A stretch of DNA of 32,000 nt from Candidatus Heimdallarchaeota archaeon (lineage in GTDB: Archaea > Asgardarchaeota > Heimdallarchaeia > Heimdallarchaeales > Heimdallarchaeaceae). The notes beneath the pieces are model-generated. The model worked only from the letters and a program-made list of their open reading frames with translations, did no database searches and had not been told where the DNA came from. The stretch lies in the NCBI GenBank assembly GCA_030668875.1, contig DAOVER010000006.1, positions 1-32,000 on the forward strand. Reading direction: 5' to 3'. The number at the start of each line of letters is the position of its first letter. Positions within the stretch are counted from its first letter, which is position 1. Positions 1-10,598 of this stretch are shown here, piece by piece. The position numbers and the translations under genes are program-made.

Positions 1-145
1 AAAAGAGAAGTTTGTTTGCTTTTTTCAATTCACTTTTTATCAAAAAATTTGCTCGATTATAGAGATTTTTTGCTTGATGACAGATTCTGCTCAGTGCTGG
101 ATGATACGTCACTTCTATACGTTCTGCACGCAGTACCTTTGCCAT
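1..145 (-). CDS. tnpB: IS200/IS605-family RNA-guided endonuclease TnpB, N-terminus only (runs off the window edge)
   Basis: Not in the ORF track. Manual translation from ATG at 145: MAKVLRAERIEVTYHPALSRICHQAKNLYNRANFLIKSELKKANKLLF, matching the TnpB N-terminal pattern (L..LC..AKNLYN.ANY.I). Purine-rich AAGAAGG directly upstream. Confidence 0.8.
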   Translation of the reverse strand, partial: MAKVLRAERIEVTYHPALSRICHQAKNLYNRANFLIKSELKKANKLLF

Positions 146-882
146 CCTTCTTTAACCCAGAGTTTACTATAAAAACACCCGTACTATCTCTCTCTTACTC
201 GGTTTCCAACCTAAGAAGACAAAAAGACAAAAGGATATTCATAATTTAAAGAAACACTTGTTGGATAGTCTCTGAATATAGCACCTTCTGTGAATTTCTG
301 TTAAAACACTCATATCAACAAATATGATTTTTATCATACCTTCTTGTATTGTCTACTATCTTGTAAACTGGAGATGCTCCCAGGTAATCCACTTTGAAAA
401 AGATGATCTACAAGTTTAATTTTAACAAAATTCTGGGGTTGATTCAAATCCTGGAAGAAATTTATTTCACTGAACGGAAAAACTAACAAAAAATAAAACG
501 GAGAAATTTTTAAGACAGTCTCTAGATTAATTCTGTTGTCACTACACAAACGGGGGCAGTACTCAAGATAATGTATACAGTTTTTTACATCAGAATTATA
601 ATTTTTAGTTTTCGCTTTTTGTTCCAACACAAGCACATTTCACTAGAGGAACTTTGTCAATTATAAAGATTATGGATTACCACGATTTGAAATTTAAGAG
701 ACACTTTTACAAGGACTTGCAAAAAGAGATAAAAAAAGAACAAAAAGTTGGAAATCATAAGACAGGATAAAAACAGGTGCTTATGCTGGTTTTCCTGCCC
801 GATGTTTCCTCACCCAATAATTTCAACACATGAAAAATAACAAAATTTTTACTTCAGTATTTTTGGCGTTAATGCTTTGTAG

Positions 883-916
883 TAGGGAAATGTTGGTCTT
901 GATAACATTTTTCCTA
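883..916 (+). other. Stem-loop with a 9-nt loop containing CTTG|AT; candidate rolling-circle nick site (oriIS/dso)
   Basis: TAGGGAAATGTT-GGTCTTGAT-AACATTTTTCCTA: perfect 7-bp inner stem (888-894/904-910), extended through one G-T pair and one bulge. Function is inferred. Confidence 0.4.
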
Positions 917-1706
917 ACCTCTTTTATTGGGATGAGTATAAATTAATTTCAAAGTATATAATAATTCTTATAGAAAAGAGTAAAAATGACATGTATTTAG
1001 TTAAAAAAGTACTATTTTTCACATAAATCGTACAGTTTTTCACGTAAATTAGACAATTTTAAGACTACTATCAGAATAATCAAAATTTGGCAATTACTTG
1101 AACAAGAAAGGCAGAAAGGAAAGATTAACAATCTTTAAACAATGCGAATCCACAATATTCCTAGCCTATATAGGTATCCTATCGGATTAGACGGATTCTC
1201 GGATTCTTCTGGGTAGAGTACAATATTTTTATATCTCTATGCTGGAAATCGGAAAAATTTCCGGTAGTCTCTTTTTAGATCCTTATTTCTGTCTCACCCT
1301 ATTGTATTACCCCCTCTCATCTCAAGTCCTTCGTCTGATGTCCTCTCATCTTGTGTTCTATTCACTCGACACACAACCTAAACCGATGGAATACCGACTT
1401 GTTACCCAAAAATGAGTTAAACTACAAAAAAACGTTATACTACTGTATATCTATTCAATACCGATATGTCGGGATTGACGAGCTGTAAAGGTATCAAAAA
1501 CAACGTTTAAACTGCCTTAACCCTCTTGTCTGTCCAAAAGTAAGCAAACATACAAAGTAATTCTTAACTGTGATGAGAGGACATTATGATAAGTTAATGA
1601 TAACTAACATACAAAAAGATGTAACCAAGAAGAAAGAATAACAAAAGATTAAATTGGCTCTAATTGAGAAATAGATAACACCCTGTAAAGAAAATTAAGG
1701 TTTTAA

Positions 1707-1726
1707 TTGTTGGAAATTTCCAACAA
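1707..1726. repeat. Perfect 20-bp palindrome TTGTTGGAAATTTCCAACAA
   Basis: Read directly; overlaps a small hairpin AATTAA-GGTT-TTAATT (1693-1708). Confidence 0.95.
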
Positions 1727-1736
1727 CCTGGGAAGG

Positions 1737-1768
1737 ATCATATGTCAGATATCATATGTCAGATATCA
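1737..1768 (+). repeat. 14-nt tandem repeat (ATCATATGTCAGAT x2 plus partial ATCA)
   Basis: Read directly. Confidence 0.95.
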
Positions 1769-1795
1769 AAATAAAAGCTGTTAAAAGAGTATTTT

Positions 1796-2058
1796 CAAAG
1801 TAACAAAGGTAACAAAGAATCCAAAGTAACTTTATAACCCCTCTTTTGTGGATATTCTTTAGAATACTCGAGGGAAACAAGACAGAGAGGAAATATAAGA
1901 AAAAATATTTTAGAGCTCATAAAGTGATAAAACTGCTTTGGATTCGTGAGATTCGTTGTTAATTTTTACTTTGGTATTTGGTACATTTGGTACGTTTTTA
2001 CTTGGGAGTCTTGGGAGTCTTGGGTGTTTTGGAAAGTGTATGTTCTTAGTGTTCTTAG
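1796..2058 (+). repeat. Cluster of different short tandem repeats with 7-9 nt period
   Basis: CAAAG at 1796/1804/1813/1822; GATTCGT at 1941/1950; TTTGGTA at 1970/1977/1986; CTTGGG at 2001/2010/2019; TGTTCTTAG at 2041/2050. A further set, CGGATT, lies at 1183/1192/1200. Confidence 0.9.
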
Positions 2059-2302
2059 TAATCTTTGAAATGTAGGATATCAAGACATTTTAAAACAATT
2101 AACAAAGTATCAAAAACTATCTCTAAAGGCATTTTGTCGGAATGGTTTAGTATTCAACACACAAAACAAAATCGTTAGAATTAGAGTATAAAATCATTTT
2201 AGTAAAAAAACTACACAAAATTACCTTTTTGAGAGAAAACCGAAATTAGTTATAAAATCAAAGTTTTATTTACATGTTAATTTAGAGTCTACTATTTACA
2301 GT

Positions 2303-2329
2303 AAAAAAGAAAGAAAAAAGAAAAAAAGA
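2303..2329 (-). terminator. Oligo-T tract ending the element operon (archaeal-type terminator)
   Basis: Long T-rich run on the minus strand immediately after the stop codon at 2330-2332. Confidence 0.55.
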
Positions 2330-2503
2330 TTAATATTCGTGTTTATCTGGTTTTAGTCTCTTTCTACAATCTTCACAATATTGTTTTTTGTCAGATAAGA
2401 AAATATTAACATGTTCATTTTGTGGGATCGTTTTACCACAACCATCACAGACGTTTGTCGTTGTCTTCTTGTAATCATCATAAGACATTATATCGGGTTT
2501 CAT
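2330..2503 (-). CDS. 57-aa zinc-finger microprotein (CxxC...CxxC)
   Basis: Below the ORF-track cutoff. MKPDIMSYDDYKKTTTNVCDGCGKTIPQNEHVNIFLSDKKQYCEDCRKRLKPDKHEY; GAGGTGA SD upstream. Confidence 0.75.
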   Translation of the reverse strand: MKPDIMSYDDYKKTTTNVCDGCGKTIPQNEHVNIFLSDKKQYCEDCRKRLKPDKHEY

Positions 2504-2525
2504 TTTTTCACCTCGGTTTTATTTT

Positions 2526-3056
2526 TCATTTTTCCCACAATCCTTTTTTTATCAATTTGAAAATTAATTTTGCTTCTATTTTGGCATCTTCAAGAGCTCT
2601 ATGTGGTTCAATGATACCCATGTTAAAAAAATTTAAAGATTCTTGAACACTAGGCCATTTGAAGTTTTCAAATCCACTATCTATTTTTAAAACATTTGTC
2701 AAAATCAGCATTGGATCCCCGGTCTTGTTTTCAAAATAAAAATGTCTATCAGATAAAAATCCAAAGTCAAAAGCTTGGTTGTAAGAAGTACAGTTAAACT
2801 TGTTAAATAGTTTCTGCAGATCCTTTCTAATTTCTTCTATTGAACTACCAAAATTTATAACATCTTCATGTTTTAGGTCGCTATTTTTAAAAATCCATGA
2901 ATCAGCAGGAATAATTGGGTGTTCTTTTATCAACGAGTGAAATTTTTCTTTTATTTTTCCGTTCCTGGTATTTAATAAAACGGCTGCAATTTCTACAATA
3001 AAATCATTGAAAGGGCATAATCCTGTTGTTTCGATATCAATTACTAGTATTTTCAT
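2526..3056 (-). CDS. DEDDh 3'-5' exonuclease (DnaQ/Pol III epsilon-like)
   Basis: ExoI DIETTG, ExoII YNQAFD, ExoIII HRALEDA; GAGGTGA SD upstream. Confidence 0.92.
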   Translation of the reverse strand: MKILVIDIETTGLCPFNDFIVEIAAVLLNTRNGKIKEKFHSLIKEHPIIPADSWIFKNSDLKHEDVINFGSSIEEIRKDLQKLFNKFNCTSYNQAFDFGFLSDRHFYFENKTGDPMLILTNVLKIDSGFENFKWPSVQESLNFFNMGIIEPHRALEDAKIEAKLIFKLIKKGLWEK

Positions 3057-3095
3057 TTTTTCACCTCTGTTTGATTTTTTTTATTATGTGTTAAA

Positions 3096-3299
3096 TCACG
3101 AAGATTCACAATCTCCATGAGTAATAGTATTCACAGGAACAATTTTCAATTTAAAATCTAATTTCATAATATTTTTCAACAATGCTTCAATTCGTTCTTT
3201 TGAGAAGTTCATTGTTTCACCCTTTTCTCTCAATTCAGCGATAATTTTCATTTCTGGTGCATTTGCATTTTTCATTGAATCTTTTATTGACATTAACAT
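3096..3299 (-). CDS. Hypothetical 67-aa protein
   Basis: The ORF-track GTG at 3311 lies inside the SD (GAGGTGA); the ATG at 3299 is correctly spaced from it. Confidence 0.65.
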   Translation of the reverse strand: MLMSIKDSMKNANAPEMKIIAELREKGETMNFSKERIEALLKNIMKLDFKLKIVPVNTITHGDCESS

Positions 3300-3345
3300 T
3301 TTATTTTTCACCTCTGTTTAATTTTTTCCTTATTCGCAATATTTT

Positions 3346-3507
3346 CTATTCTCCCATGAAAATTTTATATTTCAAGCAAAAACCGGGAGTATTTATTTCA
3401 ATCAGATCAGTAATTGTATTTTGAAGTATGTCTGAATCTTCATCATTTTTTATTTTATCTCGAAGAATTGTAAGTAAAGTTATTATTTCAAAACCATCCA
3501 TTTCCAT
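3346..3507 (-). CDS. Hypothetical 53-aa protein
   Basis: Not in the track. MEMDGFEIITLLTILRDKIKNDEDSDILQNTITDLIEINTPGFCLKYKIFMGE; GGGGGTGA SD; fills the operon gap. Confidence 0.65.
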   Translation of the reverse strand: MEMDGFEIITLLTILRDKIKNDEDSDILQNTITDLIEINTPGFCLKYKIFMGE

Positions 3508-3508
3508 T

Positions 3509-3679
3509 TTATTTTTCACCCCCGAGAAACCATTTTTCTATTTTCCATTTTTCCGCACAATACAGTTTATTTTTACAGTTCTGACATTGCTCGGAATAAA
3601 AAGTAATTTTTGAACAAGTATGAATTTTAATTTTTTGTGATGCAGGGAGATCACTAAAAGATAATTTTAATTTACTCAT
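3509..3679 (-). CDS. 56-aa Cys-rich microprotein
   Basis: Not in the track. MSKLKLSFSDLPASQKIKIHTCSKITFYSEQCQNCKNKLYCAEKWKIEKWFLGGEK; start overlaps the upstream stop (ATGAGTAA), stop lies 1 nt before the next ATG. Confidence 0.65.
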   Translation of the reverse strand: MSKLKLSFSDLPASQKIKIHTCSKITFYSEQCQNCKNKLYCAEKWKIEKWFLGGEK

Positions 3680-3971
3680 TTTGATCACAAGGAAACCATT
3701 TTTCTTTAACCAAACCGCTTTTTACTTTTAAATCTCTCTTGATTAACCATAGTGGCTTATAATTATGTTCTTCAAAACAAGGAAGACAAAGTATTTCTGA
3801 TTTTTTCAGACACCATTCACCAGGTGGTTTGAGTTTCAAACACATCATACACAATCTTTCACAATGACATTTTTCTGCCAAAGAACAACTATCACAAATA
3901 TAGGTTTCTTCTTCATTCATTTTTTCTTCATTTTCAATCATTTTTTTAACCTTTAAATTATCCAACCCCAA
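3672..3971 (-). CDS. Cys-rich (probable multi-zinc) small protein; true start may be ATG 3941
   Basis: CDSC, CHC, CMMC, CLPC motifs; couples with the rep stop and the next start. Confidence 0.7.
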   Translation of the reverse strand: MGLDNLKVKKMIENEEKMNEEETYICDSCSLAEKCHCERLCMMCLKLKPPGEWCLKKSEILCLPCFEEHNYKPLWLIKRDLKVKSGLVKEKWFPCDQNE

Positions 3972-5226
3972 CCGTTTTTAATCCATTCTTATACATTTCC
4001 CAAGTTTCGGATTCACATTGGATTGCTAAAAGAACTTTATCAGTAAATTCCATTTTTGTGGCATCTACACAAGTCATATTTAGAGGAGTTACGCATTTTG
4101 GACAAACCCAGATATATTTTTTATCCATTTTGAGTAAACTATCAAAATCTTTTGGAAAAAGATATTTTAGAATTTTTCCTCTTTGAGTATTACAAAGGAA
4201 ACCGAACCATCTGATACGTTGAAAACGTTTTTTATAATCAGTATGATACCAAAACCATGACTCTTCTTTCTGTGTGAGTTTATAGGCTGCTCCCTTATCT
4301 TTCAACCATTCATTAATATCTAAAATACTACCTCGAGAAATGTATTTACTCCAATGAGAAATTTTTGATTTTTTATTACTCCATTCATAATAAAAATTTA
4401 CGGGTTTATCATAACCGATAATTTCCGCCCAAATCCTGCGCATTTCATTTAACTGTTCTTTGGATTTAAAAACCCTAAATTGTTGAATTGTATAATCTAC
4501 TGTAATTTTTCGAGAATTATCAAGACTAGTCACAGTAACGGGATTAAAGACAAAAGAGGGAGTCAAAACATGAACGTGCCAATGTGGTTTAGATAAAGGT
4601 GATTTATCTAAAGGATTAGTGATTCGCTTATTATCACCCCAAGAATGCCAAGAATGAACTCTTTTAACACCACCAACCTTTTCACCAAAACAACGTTTTA
4701 CAAATTCTCGAGAATGTACATGTATCTGGGATTCAATGTCTTCTTTTGAGAGATCCGTTAAAGAAAAATAATCTTCAGGATAAGTTAAAATTGTTTGACT
4801 AACATAAGATTCAGGAACAAGAGTTAAAGTATCAAAAATTGAACGCCCCCTGAAATGAGAACGCCTTCTATTGCAAACGGGACAATGATTCCTCTCACGG
4901 CAAAAATGAGGTATGGCGACTTGTTTTCCACATCCATCGCAAATTTTACCAAATCCCCATTTAATACATTGGTCATTCTCAGTTAAGATTCTAATTTGTG
5001 GAGATATGTGATATATTTTGAGATTATCGCTTTTAAATTGATATTTTTTTTCACCAGAGATAATTTTTTCAAATTCGAGAGCTCTATCATATACTTCTTG
5101 TCGATGATGGTCAAGGAGAGATTTCAAATTCTCATGTTGGAAAAAGAGTTTTGCGTACTCTGTTCTATCATGTTTTCTTAAAATGGCTTCTAATTCATCT
5201 GGATGTGCTTTTTCAGATAGATTCAA
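3958..5226 (-). CDS. IS91/ISCR-like HUH endonuclease (rolling-circle transposase or Rep), single catalytic Tyr
   Basis: Zn-binding C...GFG..CDGC...C...HCPVC..RR; motif I-like ILTYP; HSWG...PHWHVHVL (HUH); WSKYISRG (Y1); C-terminal FQRIRWFGFLCN..R and CPKC, collinear with IS91/ISCR transposases. TTG start with GGGGGTG SD. Confidence 0.8.
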   Translation of the reverse strand: MNLSEKAHPDELEAILRKHDRTEYAKLFFQHENLKSLLDHHRQEVYDRALEFEKIISGEKKYQFKSDNLKIYHISPQIRILTENDQCIKWGFGKICDGCGKQVAIPHFCRERNHCPVCNRRRSHFRGRSIFDTLTLVPESYVSQTILTYPEDYFSLTDLSKEDIESQIHVHSREFVKRCFGEKVGGVKRVHSWHSWGDNKRITNPLDKSPLSKPHWHVHVLTPSFVFNPVTVTSLDNSRKITVDYTIQQFRVFKSKEQLNEMRRIWAEIIGYDKPVNFYYEWSNKKSKISHWSKYISRGSILDINEWLKDKGAAYKLTQKEESWFWYHTDYKKRFQRIRWFGFLCNTQRGKILKYLFPKDFDSLLKMDKKYIWVCPKCVTPLNMTCVDATKMEFTDKVLLAIQCESETWEMYKNGLKTVGVG

Positions 5227-5681
5227 AACAGTACACCCCCGAGAAAAATTATAGAAACAAAGTATCCTTCTAATAAGAAAGGGATAGATTCTAAAAAGAT
5301 AGGTATGTTTTGAACAGATACAAAAACACCCATATTTACTAACTTTTCACTAAAACTGAAAAAGGGCAAACAATAGAAGAATCGTGAAGGAGAACGTCTT
5401 AAAATGAATTGATAAGAAGGTAGGACAAAATAAGAAGTTCTCCCTTATCGAAAAGTGGGTTTTCAGAATATAGACTAGACCTTACAAGAAGATAGCCATA
5501 TTCCTCAATCCGAATGAGGTTTTTTGCTAATATGTGTTTCACCTGAAGGGTTCAATTTGAAGATTATTTGCTTGTATTGACAATGTAATAAAAGAACTGG
5601 AAAAACTTTGATAATAGTACAAAACTTCTTATCTCCTATTTAAGTATTGAAACCAGATTTATTTGTTGGAAAGGTTCTTCT

Positions 5682-6737
5682 ATGCCGACTATTGTAAAAT
5701 ATGAAAAAGGGGTTAAATTAGTTAAAAAACCAGAAAATCTTTCCTTTATAGCTGACCCTACCACAAACGCAGCATCACAAGGCAGTCATGCAACTTTCAT
5801 AACACATGCTCATACTGATCATTCTGTAGCTTTTCCTGATGTAGCAACTAAGGTTTACTCCACAAAAGTAGCAAGTGAGTTGTATGAAAAACTAACCACA
5901 AAAAAACCAAAAAACACTCACTACGTTAATTTTGGAAAGACACAGAAAATAGAAGATATAGATGTAAAATTCATTCCCGCAGGTCATCTATTAGGAGCAG
6001 CGCAGATATTATTCTATTTTCCTGATATGACGGTTTGTTATACTGGTGATATCAGTACAGAGGAAATGATAACCGTACCAAAAGCTACAATTCCGGACGA
6101 CGATATTGATATTTTGATTACCGAAGCAACCTATGGAACAAAAGATCTTTATTTTGATACAAGAGAAAGAACAAAAATATCTCTTCTAAAATGGATTGCA
6201 GAAAGCTTACAAGAAAAACGCACCCCAGTTATTAACTTAGGTCATCTTGGACCAGCACAGGAGACTATAGCTTTCCTAAATAGCATGCTTTCAGTTGATA
6301 TCCTTTGCGATACTAGAACTAGTAGAATTAATCAAACTTACAAGAATAATAACATATCATTAAATTGGGAAAATTTTGAAGAGACTGATGTAAGTATATT
6401 TGAACCAGAAAATACTATTGTGCTCTTACCCCGAGCATGTAACAATCTTCCTTCCTTTTTAGATGGTTATAAAGTTTCAAGGGGAATGGTAACAGGGCAA
6501 GCAGCAAGATTCGCTTATAGAAAATTCGATCATACATTTCCTTTTTCCATGCACGCCAATAGTCAAGAACTTGTTAATCATGCGGAGAAAATCCAACCAA
6601 AAAAGGTGTATACTCTATATGGGTTCGACTCTGAACTGGCAGCGTTGATTAGACACCAATTAAAAATTCCGTCTAGACCATTAAAATTTGCAGAGAAAAA
6701 ACCAACGCTAGATGAATATCTAAACGAAAACAAATAA
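5682..6737 (+). CDS. Metallo-beta-lactamase fold, beta-CASP family nuclease
   Basis: THAHTDH, AGHLLGA, YTGD, TEATYG, C-terminal FSMHAN. Confidence 0.8.
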   Translation: MPTIVKYEKGVKLVKKPENLSFIADPTTNAASQGSHATFITHAHTDHSVAFPDVATKVYSTKVASELYEKLTTKKPKNTHYVNFGKTQKIEDIDVKFIPAGHLLGAAQILFYFPDMTVCYTGDISTEEMITVPKATIPDDDIDILITEATYGTKDLYFDTRERTKISLLKWIAESLQEKRTPVINLGHLGPAQETIAFLNSMLSVDILCDTRTSRINQTYKNNNISLNWENFEETDVSIFEPENTIVLLPRACNNLPSFLDGYKVSRGMVTGQAARFAYRKFDHTFPFSMHANSQELVNHAEKIQPKKVYTLYGFDSELAALIRHQLKIPSRPLKFAEKKPTLDEYLNENK

Positions 6738-6760
6738 AATGGAATTTGGAAAAAGGGAAA

Positions 6761-7252
6761 TTATAATAAATACTCGCCTTCTTCTTCGGCTTTTTCTGTC
6801 GATTTTTCAATCACTCGAACTGCATCACCAGATATTTTTACTGGAATTTGTAAATCCATGGCTAGAAGTTCAACGGTTACTTCTTCTTTTCCTACGTTTA
6901 TATCTATGACTCTTGCTCTTGATCCTTTGAATGGTCCGCTAATGACCTCAACAATGTCATAAATATCTACACCTTCTATAACAGGTCTTGGTATTAGAAA
7001 GTGGTCTAATTGTTCGATTGGAATTTCTTCAGCTCGAGAAGCTCTAGGTCTTTTACGAACATGTCTCATTCCTTCTACTAGAATTTCTACTTCATCTATT
7101 GATTCAGCTTCAACGAAAATATACCCTTTTAACCCTCCGGGCACTAATACGGAATAGATTTTAAGATGAGGACGGAGTTCAGCTTTACGAGCTAAGTGTT
7201 CACTTAAAGATTGTTCTTGACCCATTGTTGTTCTAAGAGCATATATTGGCAT
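6761..7252 (-). CDS. spt5: Transcription elongation factor Spt5 (archaeal NusG)
   Basis: NGN domain (YALRTTMGQE, LKGYIFVEA) plus KOW (VEVISGPFKGSRARV). Confidence 0.95.
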   Translation of the reverse strand: MPIYALRTTMGQEQSLSEHLARKAELRPHLKIYSVLVPGGLKGYIFVEAESIDEVEILVEGMRHVRKRPRASRAEEIPIEQLDHFLIPRPVIEGVDIYDIVEVISGPFKGSRARVIDINVGKEEVTVELLAMDLQIPVKISGDAVRVIEKSTEKAEEEGEYLL

Positions 7253-7266
7253 ATCATCACTTCTTT

Positions 7267-7467
7267 TTATGCAATTCCACTAATTGCGCTTATAAGCGCA
7301 TTAAATAGTAAGCTAAGTACGTATCCAATTGCTCCAATTACCAATACACCTAATGCACTCATTTTAGTTGTAATAGATAATTCTCGCCTAGTTGGAAGTT
7401 TAGCATGACGTAATAAGCGTTTGCTACTAGAAATGAAATCTCTTGTTTTGTGTATGGCCTTACTCAT
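7267..7467 (-). CDS. secE: Protein translocase subunit SecE/Sec61gamma
   Basis: RLLRHAKLPTRRE...GVLVIGAIGY; single TM segment; adjacent to spt5. Confidence 0.9.
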   Translation of the reverse strand: MSKAIHKTRDFISSSKRLLRHAKLPTRRELSITTKMSALGVLVIGAIGYVLSLLFNALISAISGIA

Positions 7468-7531
7468 TGATTCTTCCTCACAAACTTAATGTACTCATTG
7501 ATTTTTTAATTGTTCTGTTAATGAACTCCGT

Positions 7532-8029
7532 TTACGTTTCAGATGTTTTAAGCAAATCATCATACTTTCCTGCGTCAATTTCCTTTTGAACTTCACGAGA
7601 ATCTTTGCCTTCACAAGTTACACCCATACAAACCATCGTACCTAGAATTTCTTTGCATGCTGCACTCAGAGTAGTAGCTGATAAATCATTCCATTTAGCT
7701 TTTGCAGCATCGATTAATTGTGGAAATGTGATATTACCTACTATTTCTTGATTTGGTATTCCTGAAGCTTTTGCTACACCTGCTGCTTTAAGAACAAGGG
7801 CGGAAGCGGGAGGAATACCGATCTCTATTTCAAAAGATTTTGACTTTTTATTTACGATTACTTTTACTGGAACTTTCATTCCTTGGTAAGCTTTAGTTTT
7901 GTTGTTGATATCATCAACTATTGCTTTAATATTAACTCCTAATGGACCTAAGGCTGGACCCATTGCTCCTCTAGGAGAAGCTTTTCCGCCATCCACAAGT
8001 AAATCCACTGTGATTATGTCAGCGCTCAT
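7532..8029 (-). CDS. rpl11: 50S ribosomal protein uL11
   Basis: GGKASPRGAMGPALGPLGVN, IEIGIPPAS, ILGTMVCMGV. Confidence 0.97.
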   Translation of the reverse strand: MSADIITVDLLVDGGKASPRGAMGPALGPLGVNIKAIVDDINNKTKAYQGMKVPVKVIVNKKSKSFEIEIGIPPASALVLKAAGVAKASGIPNQEIVGNITFPQLIDAAKAKWNDLSATTLSAACKEILGTMVCMGVTCEGKDSREVQKEIDAGKYDDLLKTSET

Positions 8030-8244
8030 TTTCTATTCCTCTTAATATATTAAGTGCAAATCAGAAGCATATTATACTGTACTTAAAGGTAACGATTTTT
8101 AACCAAAGATACAAAACATAATCTAAGAGATTGTATTTCACCCTAAAATAAAAGGTAAGGGTGTGAGAGCCTTTTTTTCTTTAATCAAAATGTTTATAAT
8201 CAAAGCTTAAAGATTTGAGAACGTAAGGATTTGGAGCAGTAACA

Positions 8245-8472
8245 ATGAGTTCAAACAAACCCATGGACATATTAAATCAAGCTCGAGAAAATAGAGTTCT
8301 AATCCGACTAAGGGGAAACCGTCGTATGAGAGGAATTCTCAAAAACTATGATATTCATTTGAATCTCACTCTTGAAGATGCTGAGGAAATTGGTGAATCT
8401 GGTAGTAAGAAATTAGGAGACATTATAGTTCGTGGTGATAATGTCATTATGATCAGCCCCCCACCCAAATAA
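8245..8472 (+). CDS. Sm-like (Lsm/SmAP) RNA-binding protein
   Basis: Sm1 ([20 protein letters not shown]) and Sm2 (IIVRGDNV) motifs; upstream of rpl37e as is usual in archaea. Confidence 0.95.
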
Positions 8473-8492
8473 GTAGCTGGAAGTAGAAAAAC

Positions 8493-8657
8493 ATGACAAA
8501 AGGAACACCATCATTCGGCAGACACAATAAAAGATCTACACACATAGTTTGTAGAAGATGCGGTAGGCATTCTTTCCATAAACGTCACAAGGAATGTGCA
8601 GCCTGTGGATTTGGAAGGTCAAAGAAAATCCGTAATTATGCTTGGCATAAGCATTAA
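8493..8657 (+). CDS. rpl37e: 50S ribosomal protein eL37
   Basis: Not in the track (54 aa). [54 protein letters not shown]. Confidence 0.97.
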
Positions 8658-8711
8658 CTAATTTTTACTGTAATCTGATCTCCATTTATTTATATTGGAG
8701 ATAAAAACATT

Positions 8712-8788
8712 GGGCCGGTAGATCAGTCTGGAAGATCGCTTCCTTGGCATGGAAGAGGCCGCGAGTTCGAGTCTCGCCCGGTCCACCA
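8712..8788 (+). tRNA. tRNA-Ala(GGC), CCA encoded
   Basis: Full cloverleaf: GGGCCGG/CCGGTCC acceptor with G3:U70, anticodon arm CTTCC-TTGGCAT-GGAAG, TTCGAGT T-loop. Confidence 0.95.
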
Positions 8789-8912
8789 TTCTCTCTTTTA
8801 AAACATTAGAAACACTTTCTTGTATGAAGTTGGTAACATATTTAGAATACGAAAAATAGTTAGATTGGCTTCTTAAATAATACTTATATATTTAGGTTGT
8901 AAATTTAGAGTT

Positions 8913-10598
8913 ATGGAAAAGTCTTATGATGAGAACCTAGCGAAGCTCATGTCTGAGGCACGTGATTTATTCAAAAGTTCTAACTTTGCCGAATCCGCAA
9001 GAAAATATTGGGAAGCAGCAAAAAAACTAGAAACAGCTAGGGGACTTGCGCAAGCAGAAGATTTGTATCACGAAGCTATAAAGAATTTCATTCGAGCTTC
9101 AGAAGATAACAAAGAAAAGAAACAGTATCGTTTGAGTGCTCAAAATCTATTTCATGTTGTCATGATTTTCAAGAGACTTGGATCTATTGATGATTGGAAA
9201 GCTGCGACTATGGCAGTAGTTGATGATCTAGTTAATGCAGCACAAGAATATCTTCTATGGAATGAATATGATAAGGGGATAATTTTAGTGTCAACAGCTT
9301 GTTTCTTCTTGTTTGCAATTGAAGAATTTCAAACAGCTGAAAAATACTACAATCAATATATAGAACAGATTAAAGACGATCCTGGATTTACTCGAGCTCA
9401 ACAGATTCTTTATGCAGCAGGTCATGCTATTCGAGCAGTTAAGAATCTAGACACTAACTCTCTTTTAAATGCTCAGCAACTTGTTGGAAGTCACCTTAAA
9501 CCAGGGTTGAGTCAAATAACAGGAGATTTATTCTTTCCTGCAATTGATGATGCTGTAGACACCGTTGTGAAAATCTTCCGATCTAAGATTAAACTTCCAA
9601 AGATTGTTTCTGAGTTTAAAATCTCTCGTGATTTAGTGTTGGGAGAACCAACGGACCTCTCTGTTTTCATTGAGAATGTAGGGGAAGGAGATGCAAATAA
9701 CTTAAGCTTTAGCTTTAACATTCCAGAAGGTATTGAAGTCATAGATGGAAATATAGAATTTTCTGTTGAAAAATTACTACCTCAGCAGAAAACTGAACAT
9801 AAGCTTATAATTAGATGTATGTCTTCAACAGGTGAAATTGCTCACGAATTAAGCGTTAATATTACGTTCTATGATCAATTGCAAACCAAACAAGCTATGA
9901 TGATGGGGCCTTATGATTTGATTTTCAGAGAGAAAAGCCTATCAAAAGAACATAAAGATGCTCTTGATGCATTATCTGAACAAAACAAAGCAAATCACAC
10001 AAAGATGTGTGATAGCAAGATTATTCCAGAAGAAGCATGTAATGTGATGTTTGAATTGATTTCCTCAATTATAAAAGAATCAAAAGAAAAGCTTGCTACA
10101 GAGGAGTTCGAAACGGTTCTTGCAAATATTCAGAATATCGATAGAATATATGATATTACTAACAAACTCACAAATGAGGAATTTATAGCACCAATCCGTG
10201 TAGCTCAAGAAAAGGAACTAGCAGAAAAAATCGAGAGTGCTATAGAATTAAAGAAAGAAGAATGGAATAGTGAACTTGAAGCCATCAAAACTCAATTATC
10301 TGAAGAACACCTCAAAGAAAAAGAAGAATTAAATCAATCTTTTGAAGAGGAAAAGGTCGATTTAGAGAAACAAAAAGAAGAGGAATGGAAGGAGTTAATG
10401 GAAAAACTAGTACTCAAACATACAGATGATATTAAGGAGTTTGAAACCGAACTTATAGAGCAGAAAGAGCAAGAAATGGAAGAATTTAGCAAAAAACTTG
10501 AACAAGAAAAGAAAAAGGCTCTTGAAGATCAAGAAGCGGTTTTACGTGACGAATTTCAACAACTTTTATCAGAATCACAAGGCAAGAAAAGAAGATAA
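8913..10598 (+). CDS. Hypothetical: TPR/SNAP-like helical repeats, Ig-like (CARDB-like) domain, acidic coiled-coil tail
   Basis: Ala/Tyr-rich helical N-terminal ~225 aa; beta-sandwich pattern (LVLGEPTDLSVFIENVGEGDANNLSFSFNIPEG); E/K/Q-rich heptads at the C-terminus; no signal peptide or TM segment. Confidence 0.6.
   Translation: MEKSYDENLAKLMSEARDLFKSSNFAESARKYWEAAKKLETARGLAQAEDLYHEAIKNFIRASEDNKEKKQYRLSAQNLFHVVMIFKRLGSIDDWKAATMAVVDDLVNAAQEYLLWNEYDKGIILVSTACFFLFAIEEFQTAEKYYNQYIEQIKDDPGFTRAQQILYAAGHAIRAVKNLDTNSLLNAQQLVGSHLKPGLSQITGDLFFPAIDDAVDTVVKIFRSKIKLPKIVSEFKISRDLVLGEPTDLSVFIENVGEGDANNLSFSFNIPEGIEVIDGNIEFSVEKLLPQQKTEHKLIIRCMSSTGEIAHELSVNITFYDQLQTKQAMMMGPYDLIFREKSLSKEHKDALDALSEQNKANHTKMCDSKIIPEEACNVMFELISSIIKESKEKLATEEFETVLANIQNIDRIYDITNKLTNEEFIAPIRVAQEKELAEKIESAIELKKEEWNSELEAIKTQLSEEHLKEKEELNQSFEEEKVDLEKQKEEEWKELMEKLVLKHTDDIKEFETELIEQKEQEMEEFSKKLEQEKKKALEDQEAVLRDEFQQLLSESQGKKRR

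Follow-up and report, generated by a model that had tools for sequence, protein, structure and literature searches.

A Heimdallarchaeota locus that probably represents a rolling-circle replicon inserted by its own HUH endonuclease without an integrase

The first 32,000 nucleotides of contig DAOVER010000006.1 (GenBank assembly GCA_030668875.1; hereafter the window) come from a Candidatus Heimdallarchaeota metagenome-assembled genome from marine sediment, an Asgard host as the initial annotation of this DNA had supposed, and contain near their left end a mobile element built around a gene for an HUH endonuclease, which we call Rep. The integrated unit occupies window 355-5441 on the minus strand, and we propose that it is probably one copy, now integrated, of a rolling-circle replicon that Heimdall-group archaea carry as a small circle of ~4-6 kb, inserted without an integrase and most likely by its own Rep. 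The coding part comprises seven co-directional minus-strand open reading frames (ORFs) running from 5226 to 2330, overlapping or abutting one another, which encode Rep and then proteins of 99, 59, 57, 71, 176, and 57 aa. The initial annotation had recognized these seven genes, the DEDDh exonuclease among them, and the zinc finger, HUH, single-Tyr, and CPxC motifs of Rep, all of which hold; the limits it gave, 2330-5226, enclose only a part of the unit. The element and its genes are as follows (L numbers designate individual contigs or loci and G numbers genomes).

355 to 5441, minus strand: the whole integrated element, 5,087 bp, whose break can slide by up to 3 bases inside a common TCT
3958 to 5226, minus strand: Rep, a 422-aa zinc-finger HUH endonuclease with a single catalytic Tyr (HUH H217-V-H219, Y295), whose TTG start overlaps the stop of an upstream ORF
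3672 to 3971, minus strand: 99-aa Cys-rich protein, found in this copy only, with no tblastn match in relatives
3509 to 3688, minus strand: 59-aa Cys-rich protein, the most widely kept accessory (L003, L017, L018, and L122; also L108 and L114, both sister elements, at 43% identity)
3346 to 3519, minus strand: 57-aa protein, otherwise found in L003 only
3096 to 3311, minus strand: 71-aa protein, kept in close relatives (tblastn matches in L003, L018, L017, and L122)
2526 to 3056, minus strand: 176-aa DEDDh (DnaQ-like) 3'-5' exonuclease, variable cargo (Pfam RNase_T 7e-16 across the full domain; PHROG 192 2.7e-25)
2330 to 2503, minus strand: 57-aa zinc-ribbon protein, with weak zinc-ribbon matches only and 89% identical in L002

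The limits of the element are given by its empty site. In G035 and G030, the nearest two sister species in which this site is assembled (~90% identical DNA), the flanking segments 244-354 and 5439-5494 directly adjoin each other; such a comparison with sister genomes had been suggested by the initial annotation. The same arrangement was recovered from the source study itself, where Logan contigs of four runs were scanned for the junctions, the empty site, and the circle joint: in one contig of run X4, 351 is followed directly by 5439 and 5,087 bp are left out, three letters (TCT) fitting both sides. In that run the empty-site contig has a depth of 9.9, the element 21-28, and the flank 36-40, such that the two alleles sum to the flank depth, and both element junctions were recovered in the separate per-run assemblies of all four runs. 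The host population is polymorphic for the element. The insertion is exact to the base, with neither a target duplication nor any loss of host bases. The element is single-copy in its own genome, where the initial annotation had suggested a search for further copies, and the 23 other genomes of the genus yield no full-length match to its DNA and no match to the Rep profile, but only backbone fragments of 24-480 bp that derive from sister elements; a profile search of 399 genomes of the phylum likewise returned only weak partial matches outside the window's genome. With the element absent from the 23 genomes and its site empty in sister species and in same-study samples, its earlier description as plasmid-like and mobile is upheld. 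The features at and around the junctions are the following.

244 to 354, plus strand: host left flank, consisting of the end of an S9-peptidase-type gene and intergenic DNA, syntenic in relatives (89% identity to G030, 77% to G035)
355 to 636, minus strand: N-terminal 94 codons of a split upstream ORF of ~166 aa, with the promoter side near 640-740
5223 to 5441, minus strand: C-terminal 72 codons of the split upstream ORF, matching in alignment the C-terminal half of the ORF in both L002 and L018
5393 to 5441, plus strand: subterminal hairpin (DNA fold), resembling a terIS end, with the 3' arm GTTCT reaching exactly to the break
5442 to 5494, plus strand: host right flank, collinear with what directly follows the left flank in relatives (locally aligned with L052 1242-1297 and L053 1580-1633)

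An assembly chimera formed via a neighboring insertion sequence (IS) was considered and ruled out: between the end of the IS near 248 and the element there are ~100 bp of host DNA that is unique, and the right flank likewise occurs only once in the genome. Window 1-248 holds the left end and the TnpB N-terminus of this IS, which is of the IS200/IS605 type and has ~25 copies in the genome, and the contig therefore ends there; no Y1 TnpA gene is detectable in the assembly. On the other side, at 5495-5570, a ~1.1-kb gene for a PLP-dependent enzyme has been lost from the host by a ~1.2-kb deletion that starts 55 bp from the element end; in G030, G031, and G035 this gene lies between the insertion site and a gene for a metallo-beta-lactamase-fold protein. 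This deletion might have accompanied the insertion or have arisen independently of it.

On the plus strand the left junction reads host ...TATTGTCT / ACTATC... element and the right one element ...AAGAAGTTCT / CCCTTATC... host. In the circle the sequence is ...TGTTCT / ACTAT... and in the empty site ...TTGTCT / CCCTTAT..., with only TCT in common. The element-side break falls exactly at the 3' foot of the subterminal hairpin, whose arms are AGAAC-G-TCTTA ... TAAGA-A-GTTCT. In L018 the outer arm is instead AGAGT ... ACTCT, two compensatory changes that keep the pairing and alter two codons, and in L002 a nearer alternative AGAAC arm is used. Two inverted matches between the element site and the host site, I10 and I13, were set aside, since local alignments of the two sites are no better than those of shuffles. 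The host target (337-355 / 5476-5494) lies within an imperfect inverted repeat of 19 bp, at the point where its 5' arm meets the loop; in relatives this repeat is situated between two convergent genes, and it is probably a terminator-like hairpin.

The break also falls at a codon boundary within the ~166-aa upstream ORF, which overlaps rep by four bases and whose frame is open across the rebuilt window junction. L002 and L018 have it unbroken, at 164 aa and at least 141 aa, respectively. Three forms of this ORF were found across the family, namely a long one of 164-166 aa with the segment containing the break site, a short one of 84-86 aa without it (L003:1476-1730, L120/L121 with L121:155-415, and L122), and one fused to Rep, as in L017:364-1662, where the N-terminus of the upstream ORF is joined to Rep as an N-terminal extension.

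The Rep protein shows an N-terminal zinc finger, a motif-I Thr, the HUH motif (H217-V-H219), one Tyr in a K-Y-x-x-R context, and a C-terminal CxxC. In an alignment of 32 sequences of the family, C87, C115, C118, T148, H217, Y295, and R298 are invariant, and C96, H191, W193, P210, H219, D303, G342, C375, and C378 nearly so; in the structure model H217-x-H219 is placed on a strand and Y295 on a helix. The top folds in a structural search with the AlphaFold model (mean pLDDT 81) were SIRV1 ORF119 (Z 7.7), parvovirus NS1 (6.5-6.7), AAV5 Rep (6.1), a Helitron (6.1), and TrwC (6.0); these Z scores are middling, and the top matches listed are all HUH nucleases except for Thg1-type proteins (Z 6.2-6.4). 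The neighbors in the ESM Atlas are 'Replication protein', Rep_1, and IS91 clusters, with TM scores of 0.56-0.59 over ~300 residues, while a Foldseek search of the model against the PDB gave nothing at E <= 0.001 and the family profile found only zinc-ribbon noise among the sequences of solved structures. A bearing on Helitrons and Replitrons had been suggested for this protein, and nothing found here points to a special tie with either, the Helitron structure being one HUH match among many at Z ~6. A search of 1.84 billion representatives recovered just 37 clusters of the family.

None of the curated IS91 and Rep_1 models reaches its cut-off with Rep. The IS91 zinc-finger model Zn_Tnp_IS91 (PF14319) scores 21 bits (cut-off 26.3; E 3e-4) over residues 95-124, and 15 of the 32 family members match it at E < 0.01, with the four Cys invariant or nearly so. 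The NCBIfam IS91 model NF033538 gives 19 bits against a cut-off of 125, Rep_1 (PF01446) 13.2 bits against 33.2, and Y2_Tnp (PF04986) has no match in the window's Rep, with a single one of the 32 members reaching E 0.008; six members touch Rep_1 weakly and three touch Relaxase. The family profile, searched against annotated reference proteins with the search space set to one million, recovered the Reps of the pleomorphic viruses ThalV2 (E 1.4e-35) and GacPV1 (4.3e-30), IS91 transposases (5.5e-16 and 4.3e-11), and the ISCR-type protein next to sul1 (2.6e-13), while the Rep of a 2.8-kb enterobacterial (Citrobacter) plasmid stood at E 0.24; tblastn alignments of Rep with IS91/ISCR-type proteins cover 66-72% of the query. 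On these sequence comparisons we place Rep in a new, unnamed family inside the Rep_1/IS91 group of HUH enzymes, with archaeal rolling-circle initiators as its nearest kin and a true but distant homology to IS91/ISCR enzymes. The earlier designation of the enzyme as IS91/ISCR-like accordingly stands as to homology (E 5.5e-16 to 4.3e-11) and not as to membership in the curated IS91 family, all models of which remain below cut-off. The Rep-Arvir family (PMC13107129) was rejected as the family of Rep, as it is Rep_trans-like and not HUH.

The best named homologs are the Reps of the 'Thalassapleoviridae' of Archaeoglobi (GacPV1, ThalV2), which are related to those of the pGT5/pTP1 plasmids of Thermococcales (PMC10919331), with a profile match over the HUH core and the C-terminal CxxC and a tblastn E-value of 7e-8. 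These Reps start the rolling-circle replication of a small archaeal replicon, the role proposed here for our Rep, but they are ~620 aa long, with ~300 extra N-terminal residues, and belong to viruses of 13-16 kb with VP3/VP4 virion proteins and integration by a tyrosine recombinase, none of which is present in the element. Pleolipovirus-like proviruses differ in the same manner, the element being without a VP4-like fusogen, a VP3-like structural gene, or an integrase. The initial annotation had held that its reading would fail if the protein grouped with an ordinary plasmid or virus Rep family and a distant integrase/att pair explained the insertion; the nearest named relatives are indeed ordinary archaeal virus rolling-circle Reps, but no integrase/att pair was found. 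A precedent for an IS91-like HUH initiator of an archaeal circular replicon is offered, by its description, by RepA of SNJ1/pHH205, a haloarchaeal virus/plasmid initiator reported to be homologous to IS91 transposases (Wang et al., 2018, cited in PMC6668415), for which the cited texts, as far as they describe it, report no Rep-mediated chromosomal insertion. The Rep_1 plasmids (pC194/pUB110) share the motif order, the fold neighborhood, and CTTG-type candidate nick motifs, but differ in the sub-threshold Rep_1 score and in the marginal match to the Citrobacter plasmid Rep noted above. With rolling-circle plasmids encoding an HUH Rep in general, the element shares the HUH motif and the catalytic Tyr on a helix, as well as a circular form, seen in the relatives L002, L019, and L020.

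These relatives characterize the family as one of small circles. The six closest relatives of the 422-aa protein (65-75% identity) are all encoded on contigs of 1.8-6.1 kb. One of them, L002, is a metagenome contig of 6,140 bp with a 141-bp terminal overlap, and is thus circular; it joins window 352 to 5441 and is a circular permutation of the element, with its positions 2002-2385 matching window 739..352 and 2383-3824 matching 5441..3958. L003 and L018 likewise span the circle junction. More distant members are circular with 55-bp overlaps (L019, 5.5 kb; L020, 2.0 kb, with little besides rep), and the contigs of all other family members that were looked up measure 1.4-8 kb; several are circular, and none shows host flanks. 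Pattern scans of GTDB species genomes and of IMG/VR found no relatives, and a metagenome pattern scan added three 2-kb contigs only. This distribution fits an integrated copy from a small rolling-circle plasmid family and not a proliferating insertion sequence. Given the single copy and the small, in several cases circular relatives, the element is therefore probably not the cargo-capturing rolling-circle transposon of the initial annotation, for which an integrating rolling-circle plasmid is to be substituted.

A set of sister elements within the genus shares the backbone (window 1146-2245) and the 59-aa gene, with an unrelated protein of 441-453 aa in place of the HUH Rep. They were found at G000:C40 ~2069-5213 (L114) and G031:C193 (L108 ~2700-8925), and also in G018, G019, G038, and G026; at least two, those at G000:C40 and G031:C193, are chromosomal. 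The 441-453-aa protein has no Pfam match and low Atlas scores, and is preceded by an overlapping ORF of ~161 aa. For the elements at G031:C193 and G000:C40 the left flank was not found in our search for their ends. The sister elements point to a modular exchange of replication genes on a common backbone.

Downstream of rep, the initial annotation had described an operon. The genes are indeed co-directional and tightly spaced, and a T-rich tract follows the last of them 3', as had been noted; they form no fixed unit, since the 59-aa and 71-aa genes alone are shared by most close relatives. The exonuclease gene is inverted in L002 and missing from L003. A 29-nt start-region cassette, common to three of the genes, is present three times. 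Searches of Pfam, PHROGs, and NCBIfam returned neither virion nor integrase matches among the small ORFs, and no ORF besides that of Rep exceeds 176 aa.

The remainder of the element consists of a gene-free stretch of ~1.9 kb (355-2330) and the 215 bp that precede rep, and includes the following feature.

700 to 2250, no strand: gene-free conserved backbone, with CTTG-type candidate nick motifs near 1103 and 713

This backbone of ~1.5 kb is the best-conserved part of the element (89% identity to L003 vs 79.5% for rep) and holds repeated short motifs. No hidden genes were detected in 700-2250, which has no long frames and no 3-base codon periodicity, and Rfam finds nothing there; it is probably composed of replication origins and regulatory DNA, or may specify an RNA. 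The CTTG-type candidates lie in a conserved block near 1103, in a palindrome near 713, and, for the 2-kb circles, in a conserved ATATCTTGTAA that precedes rep. A nick hairpin proposed earlier at 883-916 was discarded as a conserved essential site, being kept in L003 and falling in a 60-bp gap in L002.

Integrative elements of the integrase type differ from the present one, which is without a tyrosine or serine recombinase gene and without att repeats. No recombinase was found among its seven ORFs (Pfam, PHROGs, NCBIfam), the 92%-complete assembly has no Pfam match to Phage_integrase or Y1_Tnp, unlike the control genomes, and the element ends have no long att direct repeats, sharing 3 bases only. 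The host genome itself (G000) has no Phage_integrase match at E <= 0.001, although one is present in each of the 14 control genomes; its Xer-type recombinase is either very divergent or unassembled. At the same time, the junction recalls those of the IS91 family, in which there is no target duplication, the target tetranucleotide is CTTG, GTTC, or GTCC, the ter cleavage site is GTTC or CTCG beside a subterminal palindrome, single- and double-stranded circles with abutted ends are formed, the single-stranded one being inserted, and the stop of an upstream ORF overlaps the transposase start (PMC13181058). The enzyme of the element likewise has a zinc finger ahead of its HUH domain, with profile homology that is significant and Atlas folds in common. 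The element itself shows no target duplication, a target ending ...GTCT and an element end ...GTTCT (from one event), a subterminal hairpin at the cut, abutted ends in the circle, and an upstream ORF overlapping the enzyme start. The catalytic site of IS91 comprises two tyrosines (Y2 motif), and IS91 elements are typically ~1.5-2 kb in size. The present Rep, by contrast, falls below all curated cut-offs and has one Tyr, with a His four residues before it; the element is 5.1 kb long with a large non-coding backbone, single-copy, and in an archaeal host, and it does not show the repeated copies at different sites that define the behavior of an insertion sequence.

With an integrase absent and the junction IS91-like, we therefore favor Rep itself as the enzyme that cut and transferred the strand. 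The earlier proposal that the HUH enzyme and not an integrase accomplishes the insertion is in this way supported in its negative half, for both the element and the assembly, and the joining by Rep is what we infer. As the initiator of replication, Rep would nick one strand at a specific site, hold the 5' end, and reseal the strand after one round. For integration, it would cut the circle at the 3' foot of the hairpin (...GTTCT / ACTAT...), and the ends would be joined to the chromosomal ...GTCT / CCC... site (NTCT-type) exposed as single-stranded DNA, much as IS91 inserts a single-stranded circle. By analogy only, the moving strand would be the plus strand, antisense to rep, running from the 5' far end to the 3' rep-proximal end. 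The insertion splits the ORF overlapping the start of rep and leaves its first 94 codons, with any promoter in front of them, 4.8 kb away from rep, which may stay silent until the circle re-forms; a comparable arrangement has been described in the unrelated SNJ2 replicon (PMC13107129). A more far-reaching form of this proposal, which we put forward tentatively and hold to be rather doubtful, would see in the element a living intermediate between a rolling-circle plasmid and an IS91-type transposon: one and the same Rep would replicate the circle and paste it into single-stranded DNA at NTCT-type sites, the integrated copy, its rep operon broken by the insertion, would remain silent until a Rep-driven copy-out rebuilds the circle, and the ~230-bp swappable segment would be an ori-ter insertion cassette separate from the replication origin.

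Several observations weigh against integration by Rep. Only one integration event is known, which gives no target consensus, and beyond the TCT the likeness of the element site to the host site is no better than that of shuffles (1559 of 2000 reach the score in the direct and 334 of 2000 in the inverted orientation). The hairpin foot is one of several candidate nick sites, the others being of the CTTG type; the covariation in the hairpin comes from three sequences only and lies inside a coding frame; and the ~230-bp break-site segment is absent from L003, L120/L121, L122, and L017. This last absence from close relatives also makes the segment probably not the sole or essential replication origin. 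Among the Logan contigs of the four runs there is no circular joint of this exact element, though contigs cannot prove absence, and in three of the four runs the element depth equals that of the chromosome. Lastly, the sister elements are chromosomal without an HUH Rep, which makes a shared, unrecognized integration function possible.

This last point leads to an integration carried out by something other than Rep, be it a recombinase acting in trans or an unrecognized function of the shared module (the 59-aa protein or the backbone). The sister elements, which have the same backbone and 59-aa gene without the HUH Rep and are integrated in several genomes of the genus, speak for it; no junction common to them and the present element is known, however, and with no tyrosine recombinase or IS200/IS605 TnpA detectable in the assembly, no long att core, and a break at a hairpin foot, as is typical of HUH enzymes, we deem this highly improbable. 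The single event, the TCT-only overlap with chance-level site likeness, the ~1.2-kb deletion 55 bp from the junction, and the confinement of all relatives to small contigs, several circular and none with host flanks, could also be understood as an accident, in which a plasmid broken at the Rep nick site was captured by host repair via 3-base microhomology, with no programmed insertion. This explanation is unlikely, because the host sequence was kept to the base on both sides, which end-joining seldom manages at two junctions together, and because the element is complete and unpermuted save for the break at the hairpin foot.

A further possibility is that of a true IS91-like rolling-circle transposon, moving from site to site by copy-out from ori and ter ends, with the circles as transposition intermediates. 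It would account for the IS91-like ends, for the homology of the protein to IS91/ISCR enzymes, and for the upstream ORF overlapping the enzyme start as orf121 does in IS91; formally, moreover, a rolling-circle plasmid that is cut at its nick site and integrated amounts to an ori-ter element. We nevertheless find it quite unlikely in view of the one copy in the genome and none in the 23 others of the genus, the occurrence of the other members on 1.4-8 kb contigs, including complete 2-kb circles with little beyond rep, the 1.5-kb conserved gene-free backbone, which resembles plasmid origin DNA, and the failure to reach the curated IS91 models.

Small Asgard plasmids are almost undescribed, and the Asgard mobile-element literature that we searched makes no mention of HUH, IS91, or rolling-circle elements; the present locus is a complete example, with exact limits, a matching empty site, and relatives in circular form. 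Were the insertion accidental, it would represent an ordinary integrated cryptic plasmid. If, as we favor, the element was inserted by its Rep, nature would here offer an archaeal rolling-circle plasmid that behaves in an IS91-like manner, a case with a bearing on the proposed origin of IS91-type transposons from plasmids (PMC6668415). The element might also serve Asgard genetics as a small vector backbone and as a tool for insertion without an integrase. The intermediate between plasmid and transposon that we tentatively describe would, if true, lie in the archaeal lineage closest to eukaryotes.

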